Assembly: GCA_964016885.1 (NCBI GenBank)
Contig: OZ024740.1
Coordinates: 258,044,001 to 258,108,000 of the forward strand
Reading direction: 5' to 3'
DNA: 64,000 nt
DNA from: Eledone cirrhosa
Taxonomy: Eukaryota
The notes beneath the pieces were generated by a model. The model did no database searches. It worked only from the letters and a program-made list of their open reading frames with translations, and had not been told where the DNA came from. Below are positions 4,669-44,990 of the stretch, in pieces. How positions within the stretch are numbered: position 1 is the first letter of the stretch; every line of letters starts with the position of its first letter. A program made the position numbers and the translations under genes.

Positions 4669-4866
4669 AATAATAATGTGTTTCTACTATTGGCACAAGG
4701 CCAGCAAATACCCAGTACAATACTGGTACTTTATTTTATCGACCCCGTAAAGATGAAAGGCAAAGCTAACCTCGGCGGGATTTGAACTCAGAATGGCAAG
4801 GGCCATAACTCTATGAGTCAAATCATGGCGTCGGACCCTCTACCGATACTGCCAGTTCACCGCCCG
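4669..4866 (-). mobile_element. ~200-bp SINE, near full length
   Basis: Reverse complement reads GGGCGGTGAACTGGCAG...GAGTTCAAATCCCGCCGAGG (B-box-like)...GGCCTTGTGCCAATAGTAGAAACAC-(ATT)n; flanked by AAT repeats on both sides; a 3' fragment follows at 4886-4935 (+). Confidence 0.8.
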
Positions 4867-5312: not shown

Positions 5313-5731
5313 CATTGAACTTTTTCAAATTTCATTTGAAAATGAAAATCAAGGTGGAGAGAGAAGTGTTCCCTTCCCAACAGTTTCGTGAAGATGGTTG
5401 AGAGAGGCGACAATGACCTAAGTGAATAGGCCTGCTCTGAGTATGTGACTGTAAATTGTACGTGGAAAAGTATGAGAGGGCATTCGCCCTGGTGGTCAGT
5501 GTCACTGGCTTTTTTGCGGGATTTCTCCACGAGTGACCCTTGTAGATCACCCCGACTATTGGTGAATTTTCCTTTCTTTTAATTTTTTTTTGTTACATTA
5601 TTTGTTTTTGTTTTTACACACAGAAATGCCTATTTCTACCGTCATGTGTTGTCCTTAATGTTATGTTTGTGTCAACCCCAGGGGTTAATAAAGAAAGCAT
5701 TATTATTATTATCATTATTATTATTATCATT
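5313..5731 (+). mobile_element. 5'-truncated 3' fragment of Tx1-like LINE
   Basis: Similar to 18730-19164 (TTTTTCAAATTTCATTTGAAAA..., 3' UTR hairpins); AATAAA at 5687; (ATT)n tail 5699-5731. Confidence 0.85.
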
Positions 5732-6914
5732 CTTGGAGTCTCAGTCATTGATGTTATTTAACTGGAAAGTTTGTTCAAATGAAAATCAAGCAGCTACATA
5801 CAGCCTTAGATATTCAGGACGTATCGGAGGGTTCTTGCTGTTCCCAGAAAGCATGCTTTTTGAAGTGTTCCAAAAGGGAGCTGGACAAATGTTTTTTAAC
5901 CGTCCTTGAAAACTCTTAGAGATAGTACCTGGTGCTCTTATGACAATAGGAACGACCTTGATCTCATGACAGTCCTAAACCCTTTTTAATTCCCACTTTA
6001 AATCCTGATATCGGTTGATTTTCTACTTCTCCTTTTATTGCACTCTGGTGTCAAAGGGCTAGGCTACATCTACAATAAGGCCCGATTCTTTTTCCTTGTT
6101 AAAAACTACCAGATCAGGCCTATTGTGTTCTAATTTCTTGTCTGTCTGTATCCTGAAATCCTATAGCACCTTCACTGGATCGTTTTCTATCACTGACTCT
6201 GTCTTATGCTCATAACACTTCTCAGAATGTGGTAAATTGTTTAATTTGCATAAATGCCAGTGAATCACTTTTCGTATCATATGTCTCCAGCCTTTATAAT
6301 GAGTCTGGGCTAAGTGTGTACACTCGGATACAATATGAGCCGCAGTCTCCTCTCTCTCTTTTTCACTGATCCTACACAGCGAGCTATCCTCCTCCTTGTC
6401 AATATGGTGTTTCACTCACTTCGTTCTGATGGCTTGCTCTTGTGCAACCATTCCTTCTGTATCTTTTTAAAGGTCTCCTCATTTTAACTAGCTCCATGTC
6501 TGTGGATCTCTGAATTCCGTTTTCTTAAATATGGTGCTATGAAGGGGTTTTGTTGTTATTTCCTCCTTGGACATCCCCTGGTCAATTGTCTTCTTCTTCA
6601 GTACAACTTTGAACATCGGCTCCCTACTCTCAGACACATATTTGTGCAGATTACTTTTCTCCATCTGAACACAGTCCTCTATGCTGATAAGACATGTTCC
6701 ACCTTCAGCTCTCTTTAAGTAGAGTCTATCAACATCACACCTCTTGTGGAATATGCTGTAGGTTGTCATTAGCTTCCTCGTCTTTCTATCAATTTATTTT
6801 TGTTCAGTAACATTCCATTTCAGAATTCCCGTTCTGTACCTAATAATAGACACAGCTCGGGAATTTACTGCACTTATGACATTCCTCCTATTTAGATGTG
6901 CTTTTAGTATAAAA
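5732..6914 (-). mobile_element. 5'-truncated, degenerate R4/Dong-like non-LTR retrotransposon (RLE type)
   Basis: Fragments DVDRLYLKRAEGGTCL, CR....EETAAHIVSEC (CCHC remnant), WRH, HNRPDLVV (PD..D nuclease), VVPIVI; its 3' end runs into the (TAA)n tract at 5699-5731. Confidence 0.8.
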
Positions 6915-8625
6915 TTGGCGGACGTCTAGTGCAACTGGCAACAGGACGGGAGAATTCCCATCTCTGTGAGCCGAGAAGCGGTGGCGCTGCTGAGAAAGTA
7001 TCCGAACAAAGGGGATAACATAGATAATTTTAGGCCCATAACTCTGCTAAACACAGAGTTCAAAATTTTGGCCAAGGTGCTAGCAAAGAGGTTGGCGCCT
7101 GTCGTTGATGGTCTGGTGGGAGAGGCGCATACATGCGCCATTCCAGACAGATCCATGCACCACAACCTACACCTCATGCGATACATCGTGGAGAGGGTAG
7201 CTTAGGAACCTGGCACGGGTGAGTCCTTGATCAATTTAGATCAGTCGAAAGCTTTCGATAGGGTCGGCCATCTTTATCTGGCGACAGTCCTGAGGGCGGC
7301 TGGCTTTGGGCCCGTCTTCAGAGGCTGGATCGCTGCCATGCACAGCGACATCTGCTCTGTGGTGAGAGTTAACGGTCACCTTTCGGAACCGTTCAACATC
7401 ATGCGCTCGGTCCGCCAAGGATGTCTCCTCACGTCCCTCTTGTACGTATTGACTCTCGAGCCATTACTGCACAAACTAGGAAGATCCGTGTCAGCATATG
7501 CGGACGATGTCACCGCAGTGGTGTTGAACGCCAAACACATCGAGGCAATCGACGCTACACTAAGAGAATACGAAGCGATGACAGGAGCAATGATCTACCA
7601 GGAAAAGTCGGTGGGCCTGCAGCGCGGCACCTGGAGAGGCAGGTCCATGGCTGGACGGACGGACCGATTAAATTGCTAGGGGTCTGGTTCGTCCGGACAT
7701 CCAGATGGACAAAAACTGGGACGATGTGACGAGCAGGGTGGCTTCTCTCACCTAGAAATGGGCAGAGAGGAAGCTATCCCGTAAAAGTCGAGCGGAGGTG
7801 GCGAATGCGTACATCGCGTCCGTCATCTACTACCGCCTGACCGTCGTGCCTTGTCCTAAGCCCCACCTGACTGCGCTGGAACGTTTGCTTTTTCGCTTTT
7901 TGTGGAAGGGATGCGCTCCGATGGTCCGGTGGTCCATCTGCTGTCGACATCCGCTACGTGGAGGGCTGCGCATGCCCTGGCTGATGATGCGCAGACACGC
8001 GCTCAGGCTACGACATCTCCACCCTTTCCTCGACGGTGATCAGGTGTGGTCGCTGTTTGCTAGATGCGTCTTTCCACAGCTCGTCTCCTTGACGGAGCTG
8101 CAGCCATGGGTCAACCGAAGACCGAGAGGGAGCGCTTAGAGATTGGAATGTCTTCAGGCGCTCACAGCCCTCGAACAATCGGGCAATATGATTGGTGGAA
8201 ACCCCACCTTGGCGTTCTATAGAGGATTAGTGGAGGGGAAGAGCGACGACGTACTTGGCGAAACTCTAGGCGTCGACGAAAATCAACTAGAAGAACTTTC
8301 GAGCCGGGACCTATGGACAACTCCCAGAAATCCCTGGCCGAGGAGCTTTGCCAGTTCGGGAGAAACTCTACAGGCATGGAAATGCCGTCAATCGGGCATG
8401 TCCGAGATGCGCGCAGGGCGACCAAACCGTCCTGCATGCACTCGTCCAGTGTCCGAACATTGGTGACTTGTGGGTTTATGTCGAACACCTGCTGTCGCGT
8501 GTAGGACGGATCCGGATCATTATTTCTTTTTTTGTTACATCCTCTGTTTTTACTTTTTTACACGTAGAAATGTATTGTCCTTAATGTCTTACTTTGTGTA
8601 AACCGCTGTGGTTAATAAAGAAAAC
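6915..8625 (+). mobile_element. 5'-truncated, internally deleted Tx1-like LINE copy (ORF2 pseudogene)
   Basis: High identity to 16886-19130 with stops, frameshifts and deletions; NFRPITLLN, DQSKAFDRV, RQGC, YADD motifs; AATAAA at 8614. Confidence 0.92.
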
Positions 8626-8626
8626 A

Positions 8627-8694
8627 TACCAGTAATGCACTGGGTAATTGCTGGCCTTGTGCGAAAAGTAGAAACAATTATTATTATTATTATT
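8627..8694 (+). mobile_element. SINE 3' fragment with (ATT)n tail
   Basis: TACCAGTAATGCACTGGGTAATTGCTGGCCTTGTGCGAAAAGTAGAAACA-(ATT)6 matches the 3' ends of the other SINE copies. Confidence 0.8.
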
Positions 8695-11600
8695 GAAGGT
8701 GAAGCCACGCTTCTTATCGCCTCCAGTTGTTTTCCACGTTTTACCTCGTTTTCAAGCATTCTAAACCTTTTATTCAAGTTTTAAACTTGATAAAAGATTA
8801 GAAGTGACCCACCTAATACAGGAGTTCACTCGCATATAATACGTCACCCCTTTACGGGGTGTCGTATTATGTAAAAATAATATTTGAAAACAAATTTCTT
8901 TCAACATGGATAACACAAGAAAGATAGAGAGAGCGCTGTCAGACACACAGAGAGAGGGAGACTTTGTCAGCATATCAACAAGACAGCGTTCCAGCGAAGG
9001 TAAATATAAAAGAAAATATTACGAAGGAAAAGAGGCAGAATATCATTTTTAATGATATTGTTACAGATTTAAAATTACCAAATATTTCTAACACAAACAA
9101 CACCAACAATAACACCAACAACAACACCATCAATAACAATAGCAACAACAAAAATAACAGCGGTAAGGTCGAGAACGACAATAACAATGACATTAACAAC
9201 AGCAACAACAACAATAATAGTAGGAACAGTATCAACAAAAACAACAATAATAAAAACAGCCACAATAACAGTAACAACAGCAACAGTATCAACGAAAACA
9301 ACAACGACAACAGCAACAACAGTACCAACGAAAACATCAACAATGACATCGATACCTGTAACAGCAATCTCAGCACCACCAGCAAGACCAGTAGCGGCAG
9401 CAATAGTGGTACCACTGAAAAAGAACCACTTCTTTTGCAGGTGTGGCCCGAAATATAGAAAACAGTGCTAGTCACAGAGGAGGAGATGGTAGTCGCAAGG
9501 GCCATGGTGACAAGAAACGCCAATAGAATTTCCCTGAAACCTCCACCCGATTTTTTCAAGGACCAGCAGCTACGGACGGTGACTTACCGCACCGTAACCA
9601 AAATGTCACATCGGGTGGAGAGAGCAACGGAGGCTCAAATCCAAAAGGCCTTGGGGTGCGTCTGGGCGCACAAAACCCACATCACCCGAGGCAGAAAGTA
9701 CGCCACAGTAGACGTACTTTTCGCCACACCCAAGAAGCGAATTCTCACTCTTTGGAAACCCTAAAGAGTGAGGAGATAGTCCTACTGCCGGCAGAAAATT
9801 GTGAGGGCCAAAGTGACGCAGGTCCCACCCGACGTGCCCATACCTTGGCTGGCCGCGTCTGTCCTTGCTGGAATCGAGGACAGGACGACCATGCTGCAAG
9901 TAGAGAAAATAGGGAGAGAGAACTCGTCAGGTATAGGCATGCAAATGCTTATACAAACTGACCAGGAATGTATCGACGCTATCCCCAATATCATAGACCT
10001 CGAGGAAGGACTCCAACTCGCTATAAGCGTGGAAGGAAGACGGCCAAAATCTTATCTCTGTTTATCAAAGGGTCACCTCAGGGCCTTTTGCGCGCAGAAG
10101 ACAGCGAAGAAGAAGACCCCTCTCCTTCCTATACCTGGTCCGCTGCTACCAATAGCAGAGCAAGAAACAAAGGCAGAAGCCCCTTCCACGGTGAGTAGGA
10201 GGGCAACGTCCGTGGCACCTGTACCAAGGCAACGGACAATTAAAGCACCAACATCAGTGGCGGCAACACCAGCAGCTACATTTGCAGTAGCTGCACCAGC
10301 AACAAAGTCGTCGGAGAGGGAACCACTACCACCACCATCACTATCACCACCACAAGCATCACTACCAAGGAAACTTGCAGCAACACCACCACCATCACCA
10401 TCACACCACAAGCACCACCGCCAACAACAACCAGACCACCACCAGCATCACCAAAAACACCAACAACGAAAATAAAACAAAACACACACACCCAACAGCA
10501 ACAACGAGAAAACAGCAACAAAATCGCCCCTCCCCCCAAAACGTATACAGCCATAAACGTGGCAAATGAAGAACTCCTACAACACATAAAGCAGCACACA
10601 GACATCACAAAAAAATCTACTACACTCCCACCAACACCAAGAACTCTCCCGACAAACATAAGCATCATTGAAATCTCAATAGAACATTACAAACGTTTAA
10701 AGCAAAAAATCCCCAACGCAGAATAGGCAGTATAAATGTACGTGGCCTCGGGTCATCTTGGAAGCAGGTCCACCTGGTTAACGATTTCAGGTCACCAAAC
10801 ATAGATGTGGTGGCCATCAGATAGACCAGAATTTCCGAAGCACGAGCCTTCGCACAGATCTTCGGCGGCTACGATGTATACGTATCTCCCAGCCGTCCAG
10901 GATCGGGGGAAAGGGTTGTTGTGCTTTTTCGGAGAGGCTTTGATCTCGCCATAAATGCCATCTTTCTGGACCCAGAAGGTAGAGCGGTGGTGCTGGACAT
11001 GACCGGGAGCGAAGGCACTCGACCAATTCTTCAACGCAAAACATGAAGGCTGCGTTGTCAGAGCAAGAGCGCGTGCTCTAAGACACGAGGGGACGAAAGC
11101 CGTTCAATGGGCCTGGTTGGTGGAGGCGCGACGGGGCAACAAATCCACAATTCGGTCTTTGCCTGATCAAAACGGGCGCATGTTGCTCGAACCCGAGCAG
11201 ATGTGTGCGGCTTTTAAACAGCACTTTGCTCAATTGTTCGGGAGCGGCGGCGGGCACGATCGGAGTATGGACTTCGGTGCATACCTCGACGGACTGCGCG
11301 GCTCTCGTCGACCGCAGCGCAGTGCTGGTAAAGCCGATAACAGCAGGTGAAATACGGGGCGCGATGTCTGACTGCACGAGGGGTAAATCGCCTGGTTAAG
11401 ATGGTCTACTCTACGAGCTTTATGCGTACATGCCAGACTTGTTAGGTGACCTCTTGGCAGATGTCTACTGCAACTGGCAGCAAAACGGGAGCATTCCCAG
11501 ATTTGTGAGCTGGGGATCGGTGGCGCTGCTGAGAAAAGACCCGACGTTATAGACAACTTCAGGCCCATAACCCTGCTAAACGCAGAGTTTAATATTTTGG

Positions 11601-13104
11601 CCAAGGTGTTAGCAAATAGATTGCCGTTTATCGTCGTTGATCTGGTGGGAGAGGGGCAGACATGCGCCATTCCGGACAGATCAATCCACGACGCATCTCA
11701 TGCGATACATCATAGAGAGTGTGGTTAAGGAACCTAGTATGGGTGGGTCCCTGATCAACTTGGTTCAATATAAAGCATTTTATAGGGTCGACCATCGGTA
11801 CCTGGCTGCGGTCCTCGATGCGGCCGGCTTCGGGTCCGTTTTTAGGGATTGGATCGCCCAACTCTGACCAACAAGGAGCACCTTCTCTTCCGCTTTTTGT
11901 GGAAGGGACGTGCTACCATGGTCAGACGATCCATTTGCTGTCAACACCCGTTGCGTGGAGAAATGGGCATGCCGTGGCTCATGATGCGCAAACATCCGCT
12001 GAGGCTGCGACATCTCTGGTGCTTCCTTGACGGTGAACAGGCGTGATCGCCGTTTGCCAGGCGCGCTTCCCCCACCTCGTCTCCTTGACGGAGCTGCAGG
12101 AAAAGACCCTGGGATAGCGCTTGGAAGCTGGAATGTCTCCAAGCACTCACCGCCCTGTACCAGCTGGGCACTAGTATCGGTGGAACATCCACCTCGGCGT
12201 TCTATAGAGGGCTAGTGGAGGGAAAGAGCGACGACGTTCTCGGGGAGACCCTGGGTGTCGAAGATGACAGCTGTTCGCTCGCTTCAAGAGAACTTTCAGA
12301 CCGGGGTCTATGGACAACTTCCAGAAATCCCTTGCCTGGCAGTGCTACCTGGGAGCGTTGCCGGTTCGGAGTAACCTCTACAGGCGTGGAGGTGCTGTCA
12401 GCCGAGCCTGTCCGAGATGCGCGCAGGGCGACGAAACCGTGCTGCACGCACTCGTTCAGTGCCCGAGGATTGCTGACTTGTGGAGCTATGTCGAACAGCT
12501 GCCGTCGCGTGTAGGACGGATCCGGTTATCGACTGACTCCATTGTGCAGATAGCCCCGCCATCCTCCTTTAAAGGGGAGGAAAGGCAGGCAGTTTTCATC
12601 TGCCTGGTGGCCATGGCGAAAGAGATTGTGTGGTGGACAAGGTTGAAATGGTTGAAGACGGACACTTTCCTCTCCGGCCAATCCCTGATTAACTCTTTCA
12701 AGTTTCACTTGAAGAGGGTGGAGAGGCAAGTACTGTCTTCTAGTAAGTTTGTTGAAAGGTGGGTGAAAGTGGCGAGTCTGGTCCGAGTGAACGGACCCGA
12801 TCGGAGTATGCGCCTGTAGACTGAGGAGTGGGAAAACTGAGAGAGGGCGCTTGCCCTGGTGGTCAGGGTGGCCGTGGTCTTTTGTGTGGTTTTCGCCACG
12901 AGCGACCCTCGGAAGTTTCCCCCCTTTGGGGGAATTTTTCGTTGTTTTAATTTTTTTTTATATTTCTATCTTGTTATAACCTTTTTACACGGACAAACCC
13001 CACTTTGTATTGTCCTGTACCGTTCTATGCCATCTGTAATGTTTTTCTTTATGTTAGCCTTTGTGGCCAATAAAGAAACCATTATCATTATTATTATTAT
13101 TATT
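8695..13104 (+). mobile_element. Degenerate Tx1-like LINE retaining both ends (related subfamily; broken ORF1 and ORF2, large internal deletions)
   Basis: ORF1 pieces 8964-10475 homologous to 13320-15416 (TVTYRTV, RATEAQIQKALG, ISVEGRRPK); ORF2 pieces 10720-12819; AATAAA at ~13069 and (ATT)n tail to 13104. Confidence 0.9.
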
Positions 13105-13319
13105 GAATGCCATGGTTGACGGAGGCTCGGCTCTGTAAGGTATAGTAATTTTTAACCGTTAAAACAATTGTAAATTGTTTAAAACTTGAACCAAATTGTT
13201 GATAAAGACACCCTCCTCCTCGTGAGAGGGGTCTTTCTGTCCGTTATTTGGCCCTTCGGGGTGAAATAACCAGTTATTGGGGTTTTGTACCCAAAATTTC
13301 ATTTTAAACAAAAAACAAC

Positions 13320-15416
13320 ATGGCTACAAAAAAGAAATTTCATATGTCACTCCCACTCATTCCGTCTTCTTCTTCCTCAATCATCACTACAGCAGAGAGA
13401 AGATTGTCTCTCTCCCTCCCTTCTTTAAATGTGTCTCTCTCCCTCCCTTCTCTTTCGCAAGCGACGAAAGAAAAGAAAAGTCTCGTGCAAAGCGTGCAAG
13501 GTTTCTCCACGACGACGACGACAGCGACGAAACAGGTGTGCGGGAAACACGAAAACCCAGTTCATTCGTCTGACGTCAGGAATAATAGCAGTAGCAGCCG
13601 TAATAACAACAGCAACAGTGACAATGAAAACAACAGTAGCAGCCGCAACAGCATCACCAGCAGCATAAACAACAACAGCATTAGCAGCAGCAACACCAAC
13701 AACAACCACAGCAACAGCGGCGGAGGCAGTAGTCGTAGTACCTGCAGCAACAACAAAAGTACCAGCAGCTCTGACGACAACAACAACAGCAGAGAAAAAC
13801 CAATCTCATTTGCAGGTATTGCGAAAAATTTGGAAACAATCCTCATAACAAATGAGGAATTAGAGGAAGCGAAGAAGATGGTGACAAAGAACGGACACCG
13901 AGCAATCTGCAAGGCAGCGAAAAGTTTTTTCGAAACCCAAGAGCACTGTACGGTCACGTACCGTACAGTAAGTACAAAATCCCGTAGGGTGGAAAGAGCC
14001 ACAGAGGCCCAAATACAAAAAGCCTTGGGGTCTGTGTGGCAGAGGAAAACGCACATCACCCGAGGCAAAAAATACGCCACCGTAGACGTACTTTTTGCCA
14101 CACCCCAGGAGGCAAAGGCCCAATCAGTAATGACCCTAAGGAGCGAGGAAATGGTGTTGGTGCCCTCCTACTGCGGGCAAAAAATTGTGAGGGTCAAACT
14201 GACCCACGTCCCCCCCGGAATGACCCCTTCTTGGCTGGCCGCGTCTGTCCTCGTCGGAATCGAGGACAAAACAACTGTACTGCAAGTACAGAAAAAAGTA
14301 AGAGAAGATTGGGTCGGCTCCTCCATTGAGATGCTAATCCAAACCAACCAGGAGTGCATCGAAGCTATCCCGGATGTGATAGACTTCGATAACGGCACTC
14401 AACTGCCCATAAGTGTTGAGGGCAAACGCCCGAAATGCTTTCGCTGTGGATCGAAGACTCACCTCAGGGCCTTCTGCAACGAGAAGACCCTGAGAAAGGA
14501 GAAAACCCCCCTCCTTCCGAATCCGGCTCCACGGCTACCAGCAACAGGACAAGCGGCAACCAGGAACGATAGGTCCGTGGCACCCATACCCACTCCACGG
14601 AAATCAAAGACAGCAGCAGCAGTGGAAATATTAACAACAACAACAGCAATACCAAATGCAGCTGCAACAGAGACTCCAGTGCAAACATCACCAACAACAA
14701 CAAGTGAAAGAGTGGAGCTGGTACCCCTCCCCGACCTTACAGAATCAGACATGGAGTGTGAGGTGGGAGAGGGATGGCAAAAGGTCGCAAGAAGGCACAA
14801 ACGCAGAAGCAGCGCATCGTCGCCTTTGAAAAGGGAGGAAAGAAATGAGAAAAGGGTAAAGTCTACTGCAAAGAGACCCACAGCAGCAACACCACCAACA
14901 CCATCACCACCCACACCAGCACCACCATCACCACCGGCGACAACCCCACCGCCAACAACACCTTCAACACCACCACCACAAGCACCAACATCGCAAACAC
15001 AACAACAAAACACACACACCCAGCAACAACGACAAGAAAATAGCAGAACCACACCCCACCCCCAGAAAAACAAATGCACGGCAATAAACACACACAACAA
15101 GAAACTAATGACTTACATAATTGAACACACAGACATTTCACAACAGGACTACATAATACCAGCACCAATCAAAACGCCAACTAACATAAGACTGCTAAAA
15201 ATAGCACAGAAACAATACACAAACATTAAAACGAAATTCCCCAACGCAGTTGGTGATTTCAGGGACCTAGGAGGAACCATCAATCGAAGAGTATATTCAG
15301 ACATTCTCTTAGAAGAGCCGACGACCAGCCGAAGGGACGATTCAACGGTCCCTTCACCAGACGATCAAGTGAAAAGGGATGTAAAAACCATCCCTCCTCT
15401 ACCAAAAGTACGGTAA
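13320..15416 (+). CDS. LINE ORF1 protein (nucleic-acid-binding, gag-like CCHC knuckle)
   Basis: 698 aa open frame directly upstream of ORF2; CX2CX4HX4C knuckle CFRCGSKTHLRAFC; Asn/Ser-rich N-terminus; Pro/Thr/Gln-rich C-terminus; basic RRHKRR patch. Confidence 0.88.
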   Translation: MATKKKFHMSLPLIPSSSSSIITTAERRLSLSLPSLNVSLSLPSLSQATKEKKSLVQSVQGFSTTTTTATKQVCGKHENPVHSSDVRNNSSSSRNNNSNSDNENNSSSRNSITSSINNNSISSSNTNNNHSNSGGGSSRSTCSNNKSTSSSDDNNNSREKPISFAGIAKNLETILITNEELEEAKKMVTKNGHRAICKAAKSFFETQEHCTVTYRTVSTKSRRVERATEAQIQKALGSVWQRKTHITRGKKYATVDVLFATPQEAKAQSVMTLRSEEMVLVPSYCGQKIVRVKLTHVPPGMTPSWLAASVLVGIEDKTTVLQVQKKVREDWVGSSIEMLIQTNQECIEAIPDVIDFDNGTQLPISVEGKRPKCFRCGSKTHLRAFCNEKTLRKEKTPLLPNPAPRLPATGQAATRNDRSVAPIPTPRKSKTAAAVEILTTTTAIPNAAATETPVQTSPTTTSERVELVPLPDLTESDMECEVGEGWQKVARRHKRRSSASSPLKREERNEKRVKSTAKRPTAATPPTPSPPTPAPPSPPATTPPPTTPSTPPPQAPTSQTQQQNTHTQQQRQENSRTTPHPQKNKCTAINTHNKKLMTYIIEHTDISQQDYIIPAPIKTPTNIRLLKIAQKQYTNIKTKFPNAVGDFRDLGGTINRRVYSDILLEEPTTSRRDDSTVPSPDDQVKRDVKTIPPLPKVR

Positions 15417-15451
15417 GTGGTCTTTCCCATCTTTTCCACTCTATTTTAAAC

Positions 15452-18400
15452 ATGACCTCACTCAGAATAGGCAGCATAAATGCGCGTGGCTTGGGGTCGT
15501 CATGGAAGCAGGGTCACCTGCTCAACGACCTCAGGTCACTAAACATAGATGTAGTGGCCATCAGCGAGACCAGAATCTCCGAAGCACGGGCCTTCGCACC
15601 GATCTTCGGCGGCTACGATGTGTACGCATCTCCCAGCCGTCCTGGATCGGGTGGAGGAGTTGCTGTGCTTTTTCGGAGAGGTTTGGATCTCGCCATACGG
15701 GCCATCTTCCTGGACCCAGAGGGTAAGCTGGTGGTGCTGGACGTGACCAGCGGAGACGGGCAAGCTTTCAGGCTAGTGGCCGTCTATGCCCCGACAGGAG
15801 CAGGGCGGCCTGATTTCTTCCGGCGTCTGGAGACCTTTCTTGGAACGTCCCGCTCTTTAGTGTTAGTGGGCGACTGGAACGGGATCTTAGATGCACGCTG
15901 GGACTGTGTGGGATTAGCGGATAGGGGTGGAGGGTGCAAGAGCCTCACCAACCTGCTCAGGCGTTTTGAACTGTCTGACAGGTACCGATTGGATTTCCCG
16001 AATGTGCCAATGTGGACTTGGACAAACCGCATAGGGTCATCCAGATCATATCTAGATAGAGTATTTTGTAGGGAAATAGATAGGTCTAGCATAGGCTGTC
16101 CACAATTCAAGATAGTCAGCTACACGGACCACAAATTTGTGATCTGTGTGCTTGACTTAGATAGGCTTCATAGACGAGGACCCGGCTACTGGAAGCTAAA
16201 CGCGTCCTTACCAGCGCGCAAGGCCTACAGAGACCGGATTAGCGAACTAGTTAAGCGGGCGTTGACGGGGGCCATCGTCAACAACAAGTGGTGGTTTGCT
16301 CTGAAAAGAGCGATTAGAATAGAATCGATTAGGTTTAGTAAGGCTTTAGCAATAGAGAAAAATAGAGCAGAGGGAGAACTAGTTAGAAAATTAGACGAGG
16401 CGCTTAGCAAAGGCATTGCGACCGACGTGCTTGCGGCGAAATTGGCCCTTGACCAATTCTTCAATGCAAAGCACGAAGGCTGCGTTGTCAGAGCTAGGGT
16501 GCGTGCTCTCAGACACGAGGGGACGAAAGCCGTTCAATGGGCCCGAGTGGCGGAGGCGCGTCGTGGCAACAAAGCCACGATCCGGTCTTTGGTGGACCAC
16601 GACGGGCGCATGCTACTCGATCCCGGGCAAATGTGTGAAGCTTTTCAGCAACACTTCGCTCAGCTGTTCGGGGGCAGCGGGGGGCCGGGTAGAGGGATGG
16701 ACTTTAGTGTCTACCTCGACGGACTGCCGCGGCTCTCGGCCACTGAGGCGAAGTGTTGCGAAAAGCCGATAACAGCCGCTGAAGTAAGGGAGGCGATGAC
16801 TGGCTGCACAAGGGGCAAATCGCCTGGTTTGGATGGTCTGCCCTATGAACTTTACGTACAGATGCCAGACTTGTTCGGAGGCCTCTTGGCGGACGTCTAC
16901 TGCAACTGGCAACAGAACGGGAGAATTCCCAGTTCTGTGAGCCGAGGAGCGGTGGCACTGCTGAGAAAGGATCCGAACAAGGGGGATAACATAGACAATT
17001 TCCGGCCCATAACTCTGCTAAACACAGAGTTTAAGATTTTGGCCAAGGTGCTAGCAAAGAGGTTGGCGCTTGTCGTTGGTGGTCTGGTGGGAGAGGCGCA
17101 GACATGCGCCATTCCCGACAGATCCATCCACGACAACCTCCACCTCATGCGATACATCGTAGAGAGGGTAGCTAGGGAACCTGGCACGGGTGGGTCCTTG
17201 ATCAATTTAGATCAGTCGAAAGCTTTCGATAGGGTCGACCATCGTTACCTAGCGGCAGTCCTGAGGGCGGCTGGCTTTGGGCCCGTCTTCAGAGGCTGGA
17301 TCGCTGCCATGCACAGCGACATCTGCTCTGTGGTGAGAGTGAACGGTCACCTGTCGGAACCGTTCAACATCATGCGCTCGGTCCGCCAAGGATGTCCCCT
17401 CTCGTCCCTCTTGTACGTATTGACTCTCGAGCCATTACTGCACAAACTGGAGACGTTGAGGGGAGTCCCGCGCGAACTAGGATGCGGAAGATCCGTGTCA
17501 GCATATGCGGACGATGTCACCGTAGTGGTGTCGAACGCCAAACACATCGAGGCGATCGGCACTACACTAAGAGAATACGAAGCGGTGACAGGAGCAATGA
17601 TCAACCAGGAAAAGTCAGTGGGCCTGCAGCTCGGCACCTGGAGAGGCAGGTCCATGCCGTCCAACAGCGTCGTCGGGCGCTGGACGGACGGACCGGTTAA
17701 ATTGCTAGGGGTCTGGTTCGGTCCGGACCTCCAGACGGACAAAAACTGGGACGAGGTGACGAGCAGGGTGGCTTCTCTCACCCAGAAATGGGCGGAGAGG
17801 AAGCTATCCCTGAAAGGTCGAGCGGAGGTGGCTAACGCGTACATCGCGTCTGTCATCTGCTACCGCCTAACCGTCGTACCTTGTCCTAAGCCTCGCCTGA
17901 CTGCGCTGGAGCGTTTGCTCTTTCGCTTTTTGTGGAAGGGACGTGCTCCGATGGTCAGGCGGTCCATCTGTTGTCAACACCCGCTACGTGGAGGGCTGGG
18001 CATGCCGTGGCTGATGATGCGCAGGCACGCGCTCAGGCTACGACATCTCCACCTCTTCCTCGACGGTGATCAGGTGTGGTCGCCGTTTGCTAGACGCGTT
18101 TTTCCCCAGCTCGTTTCCTTGACGGAGCTGCAGTCCTGGGTCAAGCGAAGACCGAGAGGGAGCGCCTGGAGACTGGAATGTCTTCAGGCGCTCACAGCCC
18201 TCGACCAATCGGGCAATGTGATCGGTGGAAACTCCACCTCGGCGTTCTATAGAGGATTAGTGGAGGGGAAGAGCGACGACGTACTTGGGGAAACTCTAGG
18301 CGTCGACGAAAATCAACTAGCCAATCTCTTCGGAAGAACTTTCGGGCCAGGGCCTATGGACAACTTCCAGAAATCTCTGGCCTGGCAGTGCTACCGAGGA

Positions 18401-18871
18401 GCCTTGCCAGTTCGGGATAAACTCTACAGGCATGGAGGTGCCGTCAGCCGGGCATGTCCGAGATGCGCGCAGGGCGACGAAACCGTCCTGCACGCACTCG
18501 TCCAGTGTCCGAAAATTGCTGACTTGTGGGTTTATGTCGAACACCTGCTGTCGCGTTTAGGACGGATCCAGCTATCATCTGAGTCTATCGTGAGGATTGC
18601 CCCGCCCTCCTCCTTTAGCCGGGAAGGGCAGGCAGTTTTTATCTGTCTGGTGGCCATGGCGAAAGAGATAGTATGGTGGACACGTTTGAAAGGGCTGAAG
18701 ACGAGCACTTACCTCTTCGGTGATGCTCTGATTGACTTTTTCAAATTTCATTTGAAAAGGAAAATCAGAGTAGAGAAGGAAGTGCTCTCTTCCCAGCATT
18801 TTGTTGAAAGATGGGTGAGAGAAGCAAGAATGGCCCGAGTGAATGGGCCGACTCTGAGTATATATCTGTAA
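15452..18871 (+). CDS. LINE ORF2: APE endonuclease + reverse transcriptase + C-terminal CCHC finger (Tx1-like)
   Basis: 1139 aa; APE motifs SINARG, ISET, VYAP, GDWN, YLDR, TDH; GPGYWKLN; RT motifs KSPGLDGLP, NFRPITLLN, DQSKAFDRV, RQGCPLS, AYADD; CPRCAQGDETVLHALVQC. Confidence 0.97.
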   Translation: MTSLRIGSINARGLGSSWKQGHLLNDLRSLNIDVVAISETRISEARAFAPIFGGYDVYASPSRPGSGGGVAVLFRRGLDLAIRAIFLDPEGKLVVLDVTSGDGQAFRLVAVYAPTGAGRPDFFRRLETFLGTSRSLVLVGDWNGILDARWDCVGLADRGGGCKSLTNLLRRFELSDRYRLDFPNVPMWTWTNRIGSSRSYLDRVFCREIDRSSIGCPQFKIVSYTDHKFVICVLDLDRLHRRGPGYWKLNASLPARKAYRDRISELVKRALTGAIVNNKWWFALKRAIRIESIRFSKALAIEKNRAEGELVRKLDEALSKGIATDVLAAKLALDQFFNAKHEGCVVRARVRALRHEGTKAVQWARVAEARRGNKATIRSLVDHDGRMLLDPGQMCEAFQQHFAQLFGGSGGPGRGMDFSVYLDGLPRLSATEAKCCEKPITAAEVREAMTGCTRGKSPGLDGLPYELYVQMPDLFGGLLADVYCNWQQNGRIPSSVSRGAVALLRKDPNKGDNIDNFRPITLLNTEFKILAKVLAKRLALVVGGLVGEAQTCAIPDRSIHDNLHLMRYIVERVAREPGTGGSLINLDQSKAFDRVDHRYLAAVLRAAGFGPVFRGWIAAMHSDICSVVRVNGHLSEPFNIMRSVRQGCPLSSLLYVLTLEPLLHKLETLRGVPRELGCGRSVSAYADDVTVVVSNAKHIEAIGTTLREYEAVTGAMINQEKSVGLQLGTWRGRSMPSNSVVGRWTDGPVKLLGVWFGPDLQTDKNWDEVTSRVASLTQKWAERKLSLKGRAEVANAYIASVICYRLTVVPCPKPRLTALERLLFRFLWKGRAPMVRRSICCQHPLRGGLGMPWLMMRRHALRLRHLHLFLDGDQVWSPFARRVFPQLVSLTELQSWVKRRPRGSAWRLECLQALTALDQSGNVIGGNSTSAFYRGLVEGKSDDVLGETLGVDENQLANLFGRTFGPGPMDNFQKSLAWQCYRGALPVRDKLYRHGGAVSRACPRCAQGDETVLHALVQCPKIADLWVYVEHLLSRLGRIQLSSESIVRIAPPSSFSREGQAVFICLVAMAKEIVWWTRLKGLKTSTYLFGDALIDFFKFHLKRKIRVEKEVLSSQHFVERWVREARMARVNGPTLSIYL

Positions 18872-19132
18872 ACTAAAGGTGGAAAACTGGGAGAGGGCAC
18901 TTGCCTTGGTGGTCAGGGTCATTGTGGCTTTTTACTGGGCTTTCTCCACAAATGTCCCTCCGAAGTTTCCCCCCTATTGGGGAATTTTTTCATTGTTATT
19001 TTCATTGTTATTTTTGTTACATCCTCTGTTTTTGTCTTTTTACACGCAGAAATGCCCATTTGTACCGTCCTGCATTGTCCTGCACTGTCCTTAATGTCTA
19101 CTTTATGTAAACCCTTGTGGTTAATAAAGAAA

Positions 19133-19164
<32 letters not shown>

Positions 19165-19165
<1 letters not shown>

Positions 19166-22100
19166 CTGTTGGTGCTGATGTTATTGGGGAAGTGTTTGCG
19201 TTAATGGTGTCTGTGTTTTTTGTTGTGTACGTCTTTGTGATTTGTTGGGGCTTTTTTTTTGGGGGGGGGGGGGATCTATGTATTTTTTGTACTTTTGGGT
19301 TTTCCTTCATCTTTGCTGCTGGAAGACAAAGTGTCTGTGTCTGTGTGTGCGTTTATTGTTTTATCTATGTGTATAATTAGCGGGGTAGGGGGAGTGGGAG
19401 AGCTTTCCTCGTTTTCCCCTTGGATTGGTTTCGGTGTTGGTGGTGGTCCAGCAACATCGACACCACCCCCACAATCCCCGAAACGCAAACACAAGTACAA
19501 ATAAACACACAAATACCTGAAATTGCAGACACCACACCTACAACAAACACAGACATACCCGAAACAATATAACCAATACCATCACCACCACAGTCACCAA
19601 AACGAAAACAAATAAAACCACACCAATAAAATGTTAAAATTTCGCGCTTGTCAGAAGGGCCAACGATAAACCGATGGCCCTCTTAGCACGAAGAGAGGAC
19701 ATTCAAACAGAGGGGAGATCTTTGAAATGAGCACATTTTGCGTGCCAGAAGATTTGCTTCTGGTCCGAATGTCACTCGATTCTTTCAAAGAAATTCGGGA
19801 GAGCTTTCCTCAAGACTTCGGAACCCCGAATGTGAAACCCACATCGAGACTTTTAAAGGGGTTCCCAAAAGAAACCCCAACAAGCATGGAGGTCAAACCA
19901 CCCAACCTTCACAAGATCCCGGGAGGTAAGTAGACCTCCCTTCTCTCTTTTAGCTTGCCAACATGGCCATATTAAGAGTGGGAAGTTTAAATGTTCGTGG
20001 CCTGGGGTCATCCTGGAAGCATGGTCACCTGCTCAACGACCTCAGGTCACTGGAAATGGATGCGATTGCCGTCAGCGAGACCAGAATTTTCGACACGCGT
20101 GCACTAGCCCCCATTTTCGACGACTATCAGATCTCCGCATCTGTTAGCAGACCGCGAATGGGAGGTGGGTGGCAGTGCTGTTTAGGAAAGGACTGGATCT
20201 GGAGGAAAGGTCGATTTTCCTGGACCCGGACGGTGAGTTCGTGGTCTTGGATGTGAGCAGTAGCGAAGGTGGTGCCTTTAGACTGCGGGCCGTCTACGCC
20301 CCTACAGGGGCCGGACGACCGGATTTCTTTAGACGCCTGGAGACTTTTCTGTGTACGTCTCGCTCTTTACTGTTAGCGGGGGACTGGAACGGCATTTTAG
20401 ACGCACACTGGGATTGTGTGGGAGTAGCTGATAAGAGCGGAGAGTGCAAAAGCCTCAAGCACATAATCAGCAGGTTCCAACTGTCTGACAAGTATCGACT
20501 AGATTTCCCCAATGCGCCAGTGTGGACATGGACCAACCGCATGGTGTCATCTAGATTGTATATAGACAGGATCTTCATTAGGAAAATAGATAGAAATAGT
20601 GTAGGCTGCACACTTTTTAAAACGGTCGCTTATTCAGATCAAAAATTTGTGATCTCTATGATCGACCTAGATAAAACGAGTAGGTTGGGACTGGGTTATT
20701 GGAAGCTGAACATGTCATTTCCAGCACGTAAGGCTTACAGGGACCGAGTCAACAATTTAGTTATGCAAAAGTTGACAGGGGGGATCATCAACAACAGATG
20801 GTGGGGGGCTCTTAAAAGAGAGATTAGAATAACTTCGATAGAGTTCAGCAAAGAGCTAGCGTTAGCGAAAAATAGAAAGGAGGGGGAGCTGGTAGATTAG
20901 TTAGACGAGGCTATTTGTAGTGGCATAGCAACTGACGTGCTAGCGGCGAGAATGGCATTATACCATTTCTTCAATGCGAAACACGAAAGTTGCATTGTCA
21001 GAACTAAGGCGTGTACGCTGAGAAAAGAGGGAACCAAAGCTGTTCGATGGGCCCGCGTGGTGGAGGCGCAGCGTGGTAACAAAACCACAATTCGGTCTTT
21101 GGCGGACCGAGACGGACACGAGATAAGCGATTCCAAGCGGATGCGTGAGTCCTTTCGCCAGCACTTTGCTCGGTTGTTCGGGGAGAGGGGCGAGTCAGAG
21201 AGAGAGAGGCGGATTTCAGTCCCTACTTTGACAGCTTGCCGCGCATCTCGAAGGTCGACGCTGAGCGCTGCGAAAGGCCGATTACTTCAGCCGAAATTCA
21301 GGACGCCCTTGTCGGCTACGTGAGGCGCAAGTCACCCGATTCGGATGGCCTGCCCTACGAGCTTTACGTAAATATGCCAGATTTGTTCTCCGATCTCCTC
21401 GAATCATTCTACTGCAACTGGCAGCAGAATGGGAGTATTCCCAGTGTTGTGAGCAGGAGAGTGGTGACGCTGATCAGGAAAGACGAGAACAAGAGGGATA
21501 CATTAGACAACTTCAGGCCCGTAACTCTGCTCAACACAGAGTTTAAGATTTTGGCCAAGGTGTTAGCAAAGAGATTGGCGCTTGTCGTCAAGGGTGCCCT
21601 CTATCTTCCCTTCTGTACATATTGACTCTCGAGCCTTTACTGCGGAAGCTGAAGCTGTTGCAGGACATCCCGCTCGAACCGGGACGTGGAAAGGTGGTGT
21701 CGGCTTATGCGGACTACATCACCGCGATGGTGTCGGAAACCTCAGAAATCGAGGTGGTCGGCACCTTATTGCAGGAATATGAAAGGTTGACAGGAGCCAA
21801 ACTTAACCAGGAAAAGTCGGTGGGCTTGCAGCTCGGAACCTGGAGAGGCAAGCCTATGCCGTCCAACAGCGTCATGGGGAGCTGAACGTACGGACCGGCA
21901 AAGTAGCTCGATGTTTGGTTTGGACCAGTCCTCCAGGTGAAAAAGAATTGGGACGAGGTAACGAGCAGGGTAGCCAGTCTCACCCAAAAATGGGCTGGGA
22001 GGAAGCTATCACTGAAAGGACGCGCGGAGATGGCGAATACGTACATCGTGTCCGTCATCTACTACCGCCTGACCGTCGTGCCTTGCCCCTGTCAGCGCCT

Positions 22101-23359
22101 CGTCAAGTTGGAACGGCTCCTCTTCAAATTCTTGTGGAGGGGACAAGTTTCGTTGGTGAAGCGGTCCATCTGTTGCCAGCAACCTCTACGCGGAGGGCTG
22201 AGCATGCCGTAGCTAATGATGCGCAGACATGCGCTGAGGCTGCGACATCTCCAGCTATTCTGCCTAAACGGTGAACAGGTGTGGTCGCCGTTTATCAGAC
22301 GGGCCTTTCCGCAGCTCGTTTCTTTGACTGAGCTGCAGTCCCGGGTCAAGAAGAGACCGAGACTGGGTACTGACACCTGGAATGTTGTCAGGCACTCACT
22401 GCCCTCTTCCAAGCATGCAATGCGATCAGTGGAACTGCCACTCTCGAGTTCTATAGAGGATTAGTGGTGGGCAAGTGCGATGACGCACTCGGAGAAACTT
22501 TGGGCCTCGACGAAGTCGAACTGACCAGTCTGTACCGGAGGACTTTAGAGCTGGGGACGATGGACAATTTCCAGAAATCCCTCGCTTGGCAGTGCTACCG
22601 GGGTGGGGGAGGGCACTGCCGGTTCGGGATAAACTCTACAGGCACGGAAGTGCTGTCAGACGGACCTGCCCATGATGCGCACAGAACGACGAAAGCATTA
22701 TGCACGCACTTGTCCAATGTCCGTGCATTACTGACTTATGGAGATATGTCGAACAGCTACTGTCGCATGTGGAACGAATCCGGCTATCGGCCGAGTCCAT
22801 AGTGAAGATCGACCGCCGCCTTCCTTAGGTCAGGAAGAGCAGGACATTTTCCTCTGTCTGGTGGCCGTTGCGAAAGAGGTTATATGGTGGACCAGATTAA
22901 AAGGACTGAAGACAAACACTTTTCTCATCGGCCAATCCCTCATCAACTTCTTCAAGTTTCACCCGGAAAGGAAGGTGAGGGTGGAGAGAGAAGTGATGCC
23001 TCGCAGTACATTTGCTAAAAGGTGGATGAATGTGGCGAGAATGGCCCGTGTGAATGGGCCTACTCTGACCCTGCGCCTATAGGCTAGCTAACTTGAGAGG
23101 AGGGGTGCTCTCCCTGGGTGATCTAGAAGTGCAGGGTGGTTCAGGATTGGTGGGGTACCTGAGTCACCCAAGGGTCGTCCACCCCTTATCGGGGAATTTA
23201 TTTGTTATATTTATGCATAATTTATTTTATATTTTTCATATTTTCATTGTTAAATTAGTCTTGCCATTGTGCACTTTTACTCGACCTTATTGTAAATCCC
23301 CACTGTCACTGTTTTTGTATTGTCCCCTACATGTCGGCCCTTGTGGCTAATAAATGAAA

Positions 23360-23421
<62 letters not shown>
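19165..23421 (+). mobile_element. Degenerate, more divergent Tx1-like LINE, 5'-truncated with a probable inverted 5' segment (19165-~19446)
   Basis: ORF2 remnants 19963-23082 (GSLNVRG, GDWN, GYWKLN, NFRPVTLLN, YADY); AATAAA 23349; (ATT)n 23362-23421 followed by (AGA)n. Confidence 0.9.
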
Positions 23422-23422
<1 letters not shown>

Positions 23423-23749
23423 GAAGAAGAAGAAGAAGAAGAAGAAGAAGAAGAAGAAGAAGAAGAAGAAGAAGACGACGACATTTACCTGAAACAGAAT
23501 CGGGAAAATCTTGATGAATGAAGATGGGGAGGAGAAGGTTTTGACAGAATTTTGCTAATTTTGAAATTCAACTTTCTCGTTAGATGCTCCTGATAAATGT
23601 TGGAAATATTTTCATGGAATTAACCTAATTATTTCTATTTATTAAAAAGTTATATTAGCAAACATTTCTGATTCGCAAATGACAAATTTCTTTTTAGAAA
23701 TCAATATGAAAATCAAAGACAACAACAAAAGCAACATAATTAACAAAAT

Positions 23750-25503: not shown

Positions 25504-26693
25504 TCTATAAAGCTCAGTGTGTGGTCATGCTTCTTTCTTACAGAAATCTACGATATAGAATTTCTTCAATTGAAATTTACAATTCAGTATTCGAAATAGT
25601 TTCGATTGCGTCTTAGCACATCTAATGTTTGCAATTTCACCCACAATTACGCAAAAAATAAATAAAACTCAATATTTTACGATTTTTCTCTGTCATTTAA
25701 ACTGCTAAACTCTTTCCACTACCATTCAAAATCTATACAACTTCATACTTTCTGCTACTTTCTCTTTCTAAGCTTGATGGTGATACTTTCCGTTTTACTC
25801 TGTCATATCATCTACTTCCCTCTACCTACATCCCACACATTTTGCTACTTTCTCTTTTATACTTCAAATTATTACATTTTATACGAAACGACAATTAGTC
25901 AAAAGCAACAGATACATTTATTCAACAACAAGCGATAAATCTTTTTTAAAACCTCTTTTCCAAACGCATACAAACACACACTCACTTCAACAACAACAAC
26001 AACAACAACCTGCCTTTTATAGATAATGATAAACAATAATATCCTCTATGAGGTCACTAAACCTGCTAGAAACAGCAGCTAACTCTCCCCCATATCACAC
26101 CACTGCCTACTGTCTTAAATTTAGAAAACACATATCCTCTATGAGCTTACTAAACCTGCTAGAAACAGCAGCTAACTCTCCCCCATATCACACCCATCCC
26201 TACTGTCTTAAATTTAGAAAACATATCTTCTATGAGGTCACTAAACCTGCTAGAAACAGCAGCTAACTCTCCTCCATATCACACCACTCCCTACTGTCTT
26301 AAATTTAGAAAACATATCCTCTATGAGGTCACTAAACCTGCTAGAAACAACAGCTAACTCTCCCTCATATCACAACCCTCCCTACTGTCTTAAATTTAGA
26401 AAACACACAGACAACCATGCAGAACAACTCCATCGCAGCTCTGTTGTTCGGTTGGAATCGTCTACGCGCGTGTTGCGCAAGTACTGTGAAACAATAAATT
26501 TCAACACTTTTTTGCACAGAGATAATATCCATAGGCGAAACTACAATTGTCACTGCTGGTGCAGCTCCTGCTTCCAGGTCTGCAATTCATTCACCCAGTG
26601 CCTGGCAGACAAAAAAGTGCTGCCATAAAATGGGTGGTGCAACCTAACTTTGGTAACTTAATGACCCCGAGCAACGCCGGGCTTTAATGCTAG
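25504..26693 (+). mobile_element. Putative non-autonomous Helitron (3' end clear, 5' end tentative)
   Basis: 3' signature CCCG-AGCAACGC-CGGG hairpin (26666-26681) followed 8 nt later by CTAG|T (26690-26693); candidate A|TC 5' end at 25504. Confidence 0.5.
26040..26406. repeat. Minisatellite, 4 x 91-93 bp
   Basis: Units start at 26040, 26133, 26224, 26315 (TATCCTCTATGAGGTCACTAAACCTGCTAGAAACAGCAGC...AAATTTAGAAAACA). Confidence 0.95.
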
Positions 26694-41108: not shown

Positions 41109-41541
41109 GTTATACTTTGGCAGCGTCATGTTGCCAATAAGAAATACTCGCACCAGTTGCTTTCACTTCAATTTATTATAAATTTCCGGTTGGCTGGTTC
41201 CACAACCGGATGGTTGTTCATATATTGTCAAAGTTCTTTTGTCACACATTCTGTGGCCTCATCGGTGACTGGGGATTCTTTTCTTCGTTTTGTGCCTCTC
41301 CTTTGTTCTATCCTACGCCATCTTGTTTTTGTGTGTGTTGTGTGCTTAGTTTGCGTACGTGTTACATTCCGGTGTCTGTGTGTGTTTGTATTTGTTTATT
41401 TACATGTTACTAGTTAGTTGTTTGTTCTATGTGTGTGTTTTTTTCATTTTGTCCTTAATTATATGTTGTGATGTTGCTATTCCATTGATGTTTTCTACTT
41501 AATTTTGGTTTGAGTTTATGTTTATTGCCTCTGTGATTTGT

Positions 41542-41847
41542 CTAAACATTGTTTATTTTCTGTGTAGATTTTATTTTTACTTCTAAGTTCTCTAATTTGC
41601 CCATATATTCTATTTTAGCATGTTGGTGGAGTAAAGATGAGTCTTTTCTATCTTGGAGTTCTCGCCAGTGTTCATTTAATCGTTCTCCTATGCTACGAGC
41701 TGTCTCACCTATGTACATTATATTCTTATCTTTACATTGTCCCTCAGTACATCTTATGCTATATACTATGTTTCTAGTTTTACAGTTAATATGGGGGCTT
41801 AGTTTACAGATTATGCATTTCTTATCTATACAGGGAGGTTTTTGCAA
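41542..41847 (-). pseudogene. PLE C-terminal GIY-YIG endonuclease with Cys-rich linker
   Basis: CIDKKCIIC...CKTRNIVYSIRC...C...MYIGETARSIGERLNEH...SLLHQH. Confidence 0.88.
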
Positions 41848-41907
41848 AGGGTATTATTACTAATAAGTGTTTTATGGAGGTACCTGGTCTTTCCACTATC
41901 TTAATAT

Positions 41908-43086
41908 TTAGTTTAAGTTTATGTGCGCCCTTCTAAATTTGTAAGCTAGTTCACCTCTAGAGTTTGTATTGATGAACATTGCACTCTGGTATTTATTACT
42001 ATCATAACATGAGTTTATTTTATTAACCTTATTCCTAGTTCTTTCTATTCTATTCCAAAATTTGCTCCTATACAAGATGCAAGTCCTATTTGTATCATTA
42101 TTTACCATTTTTTCCCATTTGGTTCTGGCTCCTCTATATACTCTGATTTTATCTATCTGATTGTAACCAGAGAACTGCATACGGTGGATGAAGTGTTGTA
42201 TGTGTCTCTCTAGTTCTTTGGGGCTGCACACGCGGGACGCGTTCTTCATCACCCTTACTAAATCCGCAATCAGTATGTTGATTTTGGTGTGATCCGAAAC
42301 AACTGAGTTTCGGTGGATCAGATATTTAGAAGTCATGGGTTTGGCGTAATAGGAATGGAGGATTTGTGTTTTGTTATTAATTGTTTCTAACCAGAGCTCT
42401 GTGTCTAGTACAGGTAATCGATGGTTACGGTGTTTGCTTGGGTAGTCTATAGTAACTTTGATACTCTGGTGGATGGAGTTAGCTATTTGCTGGATGCTTT
42501 CCATGGTGTTTTTCTCTAATTCCTGACTGTTTTCTAGTGGGGGTGTGTTTACTACGATGTTTATATCATCAACGTAGCGGGAGTACATCAGGGTTAAGAG
42601 ATTGTTGTCTTCTAATTGTTTCTTAAGTTTATTGTCCCACCATACCATAAATAGGTTAGCTATGTCACCTGCAATGCTTACGCCAATGGCTGCTCCCTCC
42701 TCTTGGGCATATGTTTTTCCATTAACTTTGGACATATGTTCCTTAAGTGTTAGTTTTATACTGGCCCCCACCGCATGTGCAATCATTTTGTTTAATTCAT
42801 CATGGTTTTCGGGGGTCCGTATGGCTCTGGTCCACCCGTTCCATCTTTCTGTGTTAGTTTTCTTTTCCATTGAAGTAATGGTAGGTGGTCTTGCTGGCCT
42901 TGAGGGGCAGGGGTTGCTAAGGTCATATGTATTTAGGTAATCATTATTAAATGTGAGTTTAAGTAGGAGTCCCAGCGCACTGGTATCAATCCCACGGAAT
43001 TCAACATTGCTCTCACTGATCATTTCCACGAATTTCTCCACAGCACAATCCACGTCAAAGGATGGGTATAGGGACATTACATCCAT
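41908..43086 (-). pseudogene. PLE reverse transcriptase (392-aa open segment; homology continues across stops/frameshifts to ~43440 and 41490)
   Basis: MDVMSLYPS (motif A), QEEGAAIGVSIAGDIANLFMVWWD (motif B'), YSRYVDDI (motif C), LPVLD, YAKPM. Confidence 0.9.
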
Positions 43087-44946: not shown

Positions 44947-44990
44947 AGTCACTGATGAGGTCACAGAATGTGTGACGAAAGAACGTTGAC
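44947..44990 (+). ncRNA. Hammerhead ribozyme motif (family A) in PLE terminal repeat; mutated mirror copy at 41227-41270 (-)
   Basis: GTCA-CTGATGA-GGTCAC-AGAATGT-GTGAC-GAAA-GAACGT-TGAC; cores intact but stem III/cleavage triplet altered. Confidence 0.75.

Follow-up and report, generated by a model that had tools for sequence, protein, structure and literature searches.

A Tx1-like LINE family of Eledone cirrhosa positioned in (ATT)n microsatellite tracts

Full-length copies begin at (ATT)n tracts

We analysed a 64,000-nucleotide stretch of the Eledone cirrhosa genome (assembly GCA_964016885.1, contig OZ024740.1, positions 258,044,001 to 258,108,000 of the forward strand), called here the window and numbered from its first letter. 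From its letters alone, an earlier note had proposed an array of Tx1-like long interspersed nuclear elements (LINEs) joined by (ATT)n, built by a family whose tail is also its target. One intact copy in the window, D (13105..19134), represents a Tx1-like family whose genome-wide copies give good support to target specificity for (ATT)n tracts. Its full-length copies lie within tracts; at the empty and filled sites compared, insertion splits the tract, which gains units, and no flank is lost. We consider it very probable that a recently expanded Tx1-like lineage uses (ATT)n that is already in place as its insertion site and ends up with a tract on either side, probably through a nick by its apurinic/apyrimidinic-type endonuclease (APE) and pairing of (AUU) in its RNA.

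The 5' flanks carry this finding. The exact 21-base head of D has 1,687 matches genome-wide, and when each was scored for (ATT)3 in phase directly upstream, 1,641 (97.3%) had it. We also fetched full-length D copies as the 39 best matches, a non-random sample. All 39 had an upstream tract of 6–18 ATT units (median 10), and the downstream tract of the 37 with a located tail had a median of 14 units. As background, 3.0 Gb contained 44,770 tract ends at which (ATT)6 gives way to C, G or T, a lower bound on tract number, or one per ~67 kb; set against the at least six units upstream of 39/39 D copies, this frequency excludes chance. The genome-wide flank test suggested in the earlier note thus came out in favour of (ATT)n enrichment. 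Sister subfamilies behaved alike. The first 30 of 240 C-type heads all lay within 12 bases of a tract, all eight F-type heads found among 11 loci were at ATT, and so were 12 of the 13 E-type heads found among 20 loci, the 13th having two units. The ATT|GAA junction that the note had seen as common to copies C and D turned out to be coincidence: GAA occurred in two of the 30 C-type heads, with GGTT or GTT in 24, and F- and E-type heads begin otherwise. Tx1 families count as target-specific when one target occupies over 20% of flanks (PMC4494074); here the share is 97.3% for exact heads and 41% (9/22) for the truncated junctions described below. From this distribution we infer a putative sequence specificity of the endonuclease for (ATT)n.

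Empty and filled sites

Two D copies sit in units of a 2,674-base tandem repeat (G000:C1128; C2:180.97-180.99 Mb; C2:169.42-169.46 Mb), dozens of units of which are 98–99% identical and carry a retroposon-like tail ending in (ATT)9. Among the empty units scored, 22 had nine triplets (eight of them with one CTT), one had ten and one seven; four older units (L404–L407) lacked the motif match and lie outside these counts. The filled units held 10+17 and 10+7 ATT units around the D copies and 7+about 12 around an F-type copy in a unit between them, with both flanks intact in each case. Filled sites thus have 17–27 ATT units split around the element and empty ones 7–10, a two- to threefold difference, which shows that the tract pre-exists and grows. 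In this one repeat family, insertion brings a net gain of about 8–18 units. The two D copies are 1.06% apart and have no exclusive variants in common, against 17 in a reference triplicate with identical flanks, and we therefore count three independent insertions in the same tract. Together with the flanks of the exact D heads, these sites bear out the earlier proposal of an (ATT)n-targeting Tx1 family.

The same sites bear on the idea of random insertion by an element that carries its own (ATT)n at both ends and acquires its neighbours later. It would fit the near-constant presence of at least six units at full-length heads, and many LINEs do make microsatellite tails (PMC3812793). However, the empty paralogous sites have (ATT)7–10 at the exact insertion point, hit three times independently; unique sequence was duplicated around none of the 37 full-length D copies with a located 3' end; and the young copy D lies in the tail of an old copy, C. 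We regard random insertion as hardly credible.

Arrays in the window and elsewhere

We mapped the window with self-BLAST and tblastn using the intact copy D, sequence reading and tract lists. Five Tx1-like segments (A–E) lie on the + strand within 5314–23361, in agreement with the five same-strand copies in 18 kb first reported. Along the + strand the order is A, a tract, an antisense LINE, B, a fragment of a short interspersed nuclear element (SINE) with (ATT)6, C, a tract, D, (ATT)10, E, (ATT)20 and (AGA)18. The features are as follows (ORF, open reading frame; RT, reverse transcriptase; percentages are identity to D unless stated):

5314..5698, + strand: copy A, 3' fragment of a Tx1-like LINE, 78%; degenerate ATT-rich stretch upstream
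5699..5731, + strand: (ATT)n with two ATC interruptions, common tail tract of A and the antisense Dong-like element
5732..6914, − strand: Dong/R4-like LINE, 5'-truncated and degraded; RT C-terminus, zinc motif, restriction-like endonuclease region
6915..8627, + strand: copy B, 5'-truncated and internally deleted, 93%; head-to-head with the Dong-like piece
8628..8694, + strand: 3' fragment of an abundant SINE with (ATT)6 tail at 8677–8694; landing site of copy C
8695..13080, + strand: copy C, about 83%, degraded; native 5' end kept, several stretches deleted internally
13081..13104, + strand: ATT ATC (ATT)6; serves as the C tail and as the left half of D's target
13105..19134, + strand: copy D, full-length, intact, young, 6,030 bp; 98–99.9% to 39 sisters
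13320..15416, + strand: ORF1 of D, 698 amino acids, CCHC zinc knuckle
15452..18871, + strand: ORF2 of D, 1,139 amino acids; APE endonuclease, RT and zf-RVT, catalytic motifs present
19114..19134, + strand: last bases of D, predicted to form a short hairpin with a CUUGU loop ahead of AATAAA
19135..19164, + strand: (ATT)10, the D tail, flanking E on its left
19165..19452, − strand: inverted 5' start of copy E, from the neighbouring part of its ORF1 region and overlapping the forward part by 3 bases
19449..23361, + strand: copy E, forward part, degraded; most divergent subfamily, 73–78%
23362..23421, + strand: tail tract of E, (ATT)20, with (AGA)18 after it

Copies A, C, D and E end in AATAAA-(T)GAAA-NN-(ATT)n, as the earlier note had described for four copies, and B ends in AATAAA-GAAAACAT without an ATT tract of its own. 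C and D begin directly after (ATT)6; the tract ahead of C (8677–8694) is the tail of the SINE whose body fragment occupies 8628–8676. An array joined by (ATT)n describes only part of the stretch: direct tail-to-head joins occur at C–D and D–E, whereas the antisense Dong-like LINE, which the earlier note had overlooked, splits A from B and the SINE fragment splits B from C. The segment at 19165 does adjoin the tail of D as noted, but it is an inverted piece from the ORF1 region of E itself and not a native 5' end. Its 288 bases match, reversed, the stretch directly upstream of the forward part of E in ~30 other copies, which gives the start of E a twin-priming-like appearance; twin priming is known from L1. 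In their common ORF2 stretch, B, C, D and E are 74–93% identical to one another, so they do not stem from one segmental duplication, and the note's view that they belong to different subfamilies stands. Young D sits between the older C and E. Beside the last tract lies (AGA)n (23422–23475), and ATT tracts next to (CTT)n or (AGA)n also occur at L054, L063 and L081.

Tx1-type tails with at least six ATT units number 10,435 genome-wide. Upstream of the 39 D heads we found a Tx1 tail in 16 and a SINE tail in two; in a control of the first 30 tracts (median 7 units), 6–7 were Tx1 tails. We considered recognition of the family's own tail beyond the repeat and found it unneeded, the two-fold excess coming from the non-random best hits and from the greater length of tails (median 14 vs 7 units). 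Tract targeting accounts for the stacking without it. The earlier claim of the own tail as target therefore holds in that tails serve as landing sites, but the flanks point to any (ATT)n tract as the target and not the family's own tail specifically.

Stacks could also owe their growth chiefly to tandem duplication or to unequal crossover at the tracts rather than to new insertions. A three-copy tandem on contig C28 is only 0.05–0.13% divergent, within the lowest 1% of pairs, so its copies are either very recent or products of duplication; plain duplication also explains three dispersed copies whose flanks are identical. Yet in two other tandem pairs the divergence matches that of random pairs (52nd and 67th percentile, with 0–1 common exclusive variants), even the C28 triple has only one common exclusive variant, and the identities among the window copies are far lower. 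Duplication as the main source of arrays seems improbable to us.

Coding capacity and age of family D

ORF2 of D contains the Pfam domains Exo_endo_phos, RVT_1 and zf-RVT. ORF1 shows a CX2CX4HX4C knuckle in translation, and a Pfam search of its 698 residues gave no match; a separate ORF1 with a CCHC knuckle is typical of Tx1. In two separate searches, D ORF2 scored 328 bits with Xenopus Tx1 ORF2, 182 with human L1 ORF2p and 79 with R2, and its nearest named protein is from Argonauta hians (69%). By its APE, RT, C-terminal zinc domain and separate CCHC ORF1, and by standing closer to Tx1 than to L1 or R2, the element classes as Tx1-like at the sequence level. Its exact 30-base 3' end has 3,369 matches genome-wide. 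The 39 best sisters have a median pairwise distance of 0.75%, and both ORFs are open in 17 of 37 complete D-family sequences, D included. F-type copies (L103, L106, L110 and others) resemble D by 93–96% in ORF2 and the 3' end and have a different 5' untranslated region and ORF1; the switch at D position 2264 suggests an exchange of 5' halves between subfamilies.

Other elements in the same tracts

Two further elements occupy (ATT)n. The antisense Dong-like LINE, whose exact 3'-end motif has 7,496 matches genome-wide, had a reversed tail in a tract at every one of the first 30 loci; of the 15 5' ends within the fetched flank, 11 stop at ATT. We take it to be Dong/R4 from its motifs and from reports of Dong-R4 in octopus rather than from a tree. 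The antisense piece in the array (5732–6914) resembles R4-like ORFs at 60202–61676, part of a broken R4/Dong-like LINE of another family (60202–63201, − strand) with frames for RT and a restriction-like endonuclease. Behind Tx1 tails, in the 3' flanks of L075, L089 and L093, the end of another antisense element recurs, distinct from the main Dong-like family. Dong-R4 elements are described as abundant in octopus (PMC13282606, PMC8967140, PMC9115989).

The SINE head motif has 32,961 matches, a number inflated by tandem head arrays: the first 45 bases form a long SINE-head satellite (G000:C1:1982013-1982309, C1:10316722-10355255). At 16 of 30 SINE loci we found a 13–19 bp duplication starting at (A)TTAT and running into other sequence; four of the rest were pure ATT, one had a 9-base match, five had none and four lacked a tail. 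The SINE and Tx1 3' ends have in common a predicted hairpin with a CUUGU loop, the stems of which (AACC/GGTT, GGCC/GGCT or GGCC, and AGCC/GGCC in Tx1; GGC/GCC in the SINE) show changes on both sides. The hairpin is short and weak (3–4 bp stem, −2 to −8 kcal/mol), and the screen for a partner covered the Tx1-like LINE only; the SINE is likely mobilised by this LINE. ARAGORN detected no tRNA gene in four SINE loci, which lends no support to a tRNA origin of the SINE head. The window holds a near full-length SINE (4669–4866, − strand) with (ATT)4 ahead of its head and a short ATT tail, and more copies near 23992, 40896, 51263 and 59316. Judged by eye, 23 of 30 consecutive (ATT)6+ tracts adjoin the Tx1-like LINE, the Dong-like LINE or the SINE.

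Truncated copies, mechanism and the source of specificity

Truncated D-type copies came from two sets of 3'-end matches, the first 30 and another 40, refetched or added, that were chosen for lacking the exact head 6 kb upstream; removing two F-type 5' parts and one second copy in the same locus reduced 25 junctions to 22. These junctions are among several observations that speak against insertion into tracts as the general rule. Nine were at ATT, five on a Dong-like body, one on (CTT)n, six in unrelated DNA and one, with a 13-base near-duplication, at a short ATTAT site. Moreover, the ATT-joined copies are all under 900 bp, and none of the seven longer ones is at ATT. One full-length copy has a 3' flank of a single ATT and then (CTT)n. 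The empty-site comparison concerns one tandem repeat only, and slippage after insertion can also lengthen tracts. Finally, the likely partner SINE is mostly at short ATTAT sites, and the strictness with which the LINE picks long tracts may therefore need more than the nick to explain it. Truncated D-type copies often have internal deletions, and for this reason later deletion may account for part of the junctions away from ATT. At L102/L366, L113, L117, L120 and L138, and in the window at 6914/6915, truncated Dong-like and Tx1 bodies meet head-to-head with no ATT between them, one such join showing a 4-base microhomology; deletion or joint insertion may have produced these joins.

Under insertion into pre-existing tracts, the APE endonuclease would nick the bottom strand of (AAT)n and the (AUU) 3' end of the RNA would pair with the nicked primer. 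The SINE duplications suggest a first nick at the ATTAT phase and a second 13–19 bp away, so that about 5–6 units would be duplicated. The RNA may be cut just past AATAAA inside the downstream tract, or read through, and a variable number of AUU units would then be copied into the new tail. Full-length cDNA would be joined in phase via ATT homology, and both the exactness of the junction and the large share of full-length copies would follow from this. Each insertion likely leaves two fresh landing sites: one target would become two, any tail (its own or that of a sister subfamily, the SINE or the Dong-like LINE) could serve, and stacks would grow in one direction. The Dong-like LINE, with a different endonuclease, fills the same tracts from the other strand.

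Alternatively, the enzyme may have only a weak ATTAT preference, with strictness arising from long (AUU)n RNA–DNA pairing, at the 3' end and perhaps at a co-transcribed 5' end, and from selection against insertions elsewhere. Insertion of a SINE with the same hairpin at short ATTAT sites would fit, as would the truncated copies (9/22 at ATT, the near-duplication at a short site) and a head junction that is always in phase. Copies ~0.2% or less apart are, however, already all in tracts, which leaves little time for selection, and the proposal alters the determinant of targeting rather than targeting itself. We hold it possible, though doubtful. More tentative still is a three-way self-feeding niche, in which the APE LINE, the opposite-strand LINE with its restriction-like endonuclease and the SINE would make and consume most long (ATT)n; the LINE's strictness would stem from the length of (AUU)n in its RNA and not from the nuclease, making one enzyme tract-specific in cis and nearly promiscuous in trans.

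Outside the array and the elements already described, the window contains a 91-base minisatellite in four copies (26039–26405) and a divergent RT element, presumably Penelope-like by its motifs, in two copies inverted to each other (92%, 1.65 kb) and an older piece (41109–45113 and 52013–52561).

Relation to known target-specific elements

For a quick RT tree we used 51 rows, taking 40 from 152 homologues and 11 from 80 metagenome loci, and rooted it at the midpoint without an L1 outgroup; D grouped with the Argonauta protein and unnamed relatives of 40–44% identity. Xenopus Tx1L with two (TC)n-flanked elements, and a U2-flanked element, fell apart from it; the deep forks are weak (81–82 in the Shimodaira–Hasegawa-like approximate likelihood ratio test, SH-aLRT). 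The 80 metagenome loci (23–41% identity in the best segment) included no close relative, and we saw no long ATT tracts at the borders of any of them. Three of these relatives (L258, L262, L267) are flanked by putatively U2-like sequence or by (TC)n, Keno-like and Kibi-like respectively. Membership of the Kibi/Koshi lineage was considered and rejected, given the (ATT)n target and a branch apart from the (TC)n-flanked L262 and L267; the named Kibi and Koshi sequences were not in the tree.

Literature searches, including PMC13282606, PMC8967140, PMC4758252, PMC9115989 and PMC3747384, yielded no (ATT)n-specific Tx1 family and no octopus SINE–Tx1 pair, Repbase and Dfam not being compared; octopus L1-Tx1 families are given there by class only (PMC13282606, PMC8967140). 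Set against published families only, (ATT)n would be a new target, and the family a new lineage, within a known repeat-targeting habit of Tx1. This extends the few known cases of microsatellite-specific APE retrotransposons by one target, which was likely acquired independently. The many intact copies open the family to assay, with the nicking assay of Tx1L-EN as a precedent (PMC1950540). The endonuclease is held mainly to set the target in such elements (PMC4494074, PMC7265360, PMC1950540), and a strict LINE beside a lax SINE offers a direct route to nuclease versus RNA–primer pairing as the source of specificity. For genome structure, most sampled long (ATT)n tracts adjoin the three elements, and insertions add repeat units at empty sites.

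Known microsatellite targets include TC for Kibi, TTC for Koshi, TTCC/TTTC for crocodilian Tx1 and TAA for Dong, with Waldo and Mino as further cases (PMC4494074, PMC3812793). Like Kibi, Koshi and the crocodilian elements, the family described here is a Tx1-type APE–RT LINE with a microsatellite on both sides; unlike them it targets (ATT)n, has its own RT branch and thousands of copies, and leaves no poly(A) in the DNA. Dong, of the R4 lineage, lies in TAA repeats in Bombyx, Anopheles and Biomphalaria (PMC3812793), the same microsatellite, and a Dong-like family is also present in the Eledone cirrhosa genome; the Tx1-like family differs in having an APE, whereas the Dong-like one has a restriction-like endonuclease region and the opposite orientation. 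Two LINE families in one simple repeat in opposite orientations recall SART and TRAS in (TTAGG)n, where SART1Bm needs three or more units (PMC7265360). Those are telomeric R1-clade elements with poly(A) tails, in contrast to the two unrelated endonuclease types, dispersed microsatellites and tail identical with target seen here. SINEU-3 and Tx1-Mar likewise have a SINE–Tx1 link drawn from common target choice and tandem insertions around a duplicated target (PMC4494074); their target is a Mariner element, while in Eledone cirrhosa a 3' hairpin adds support for the link and the SINE is laxer than its LINE.

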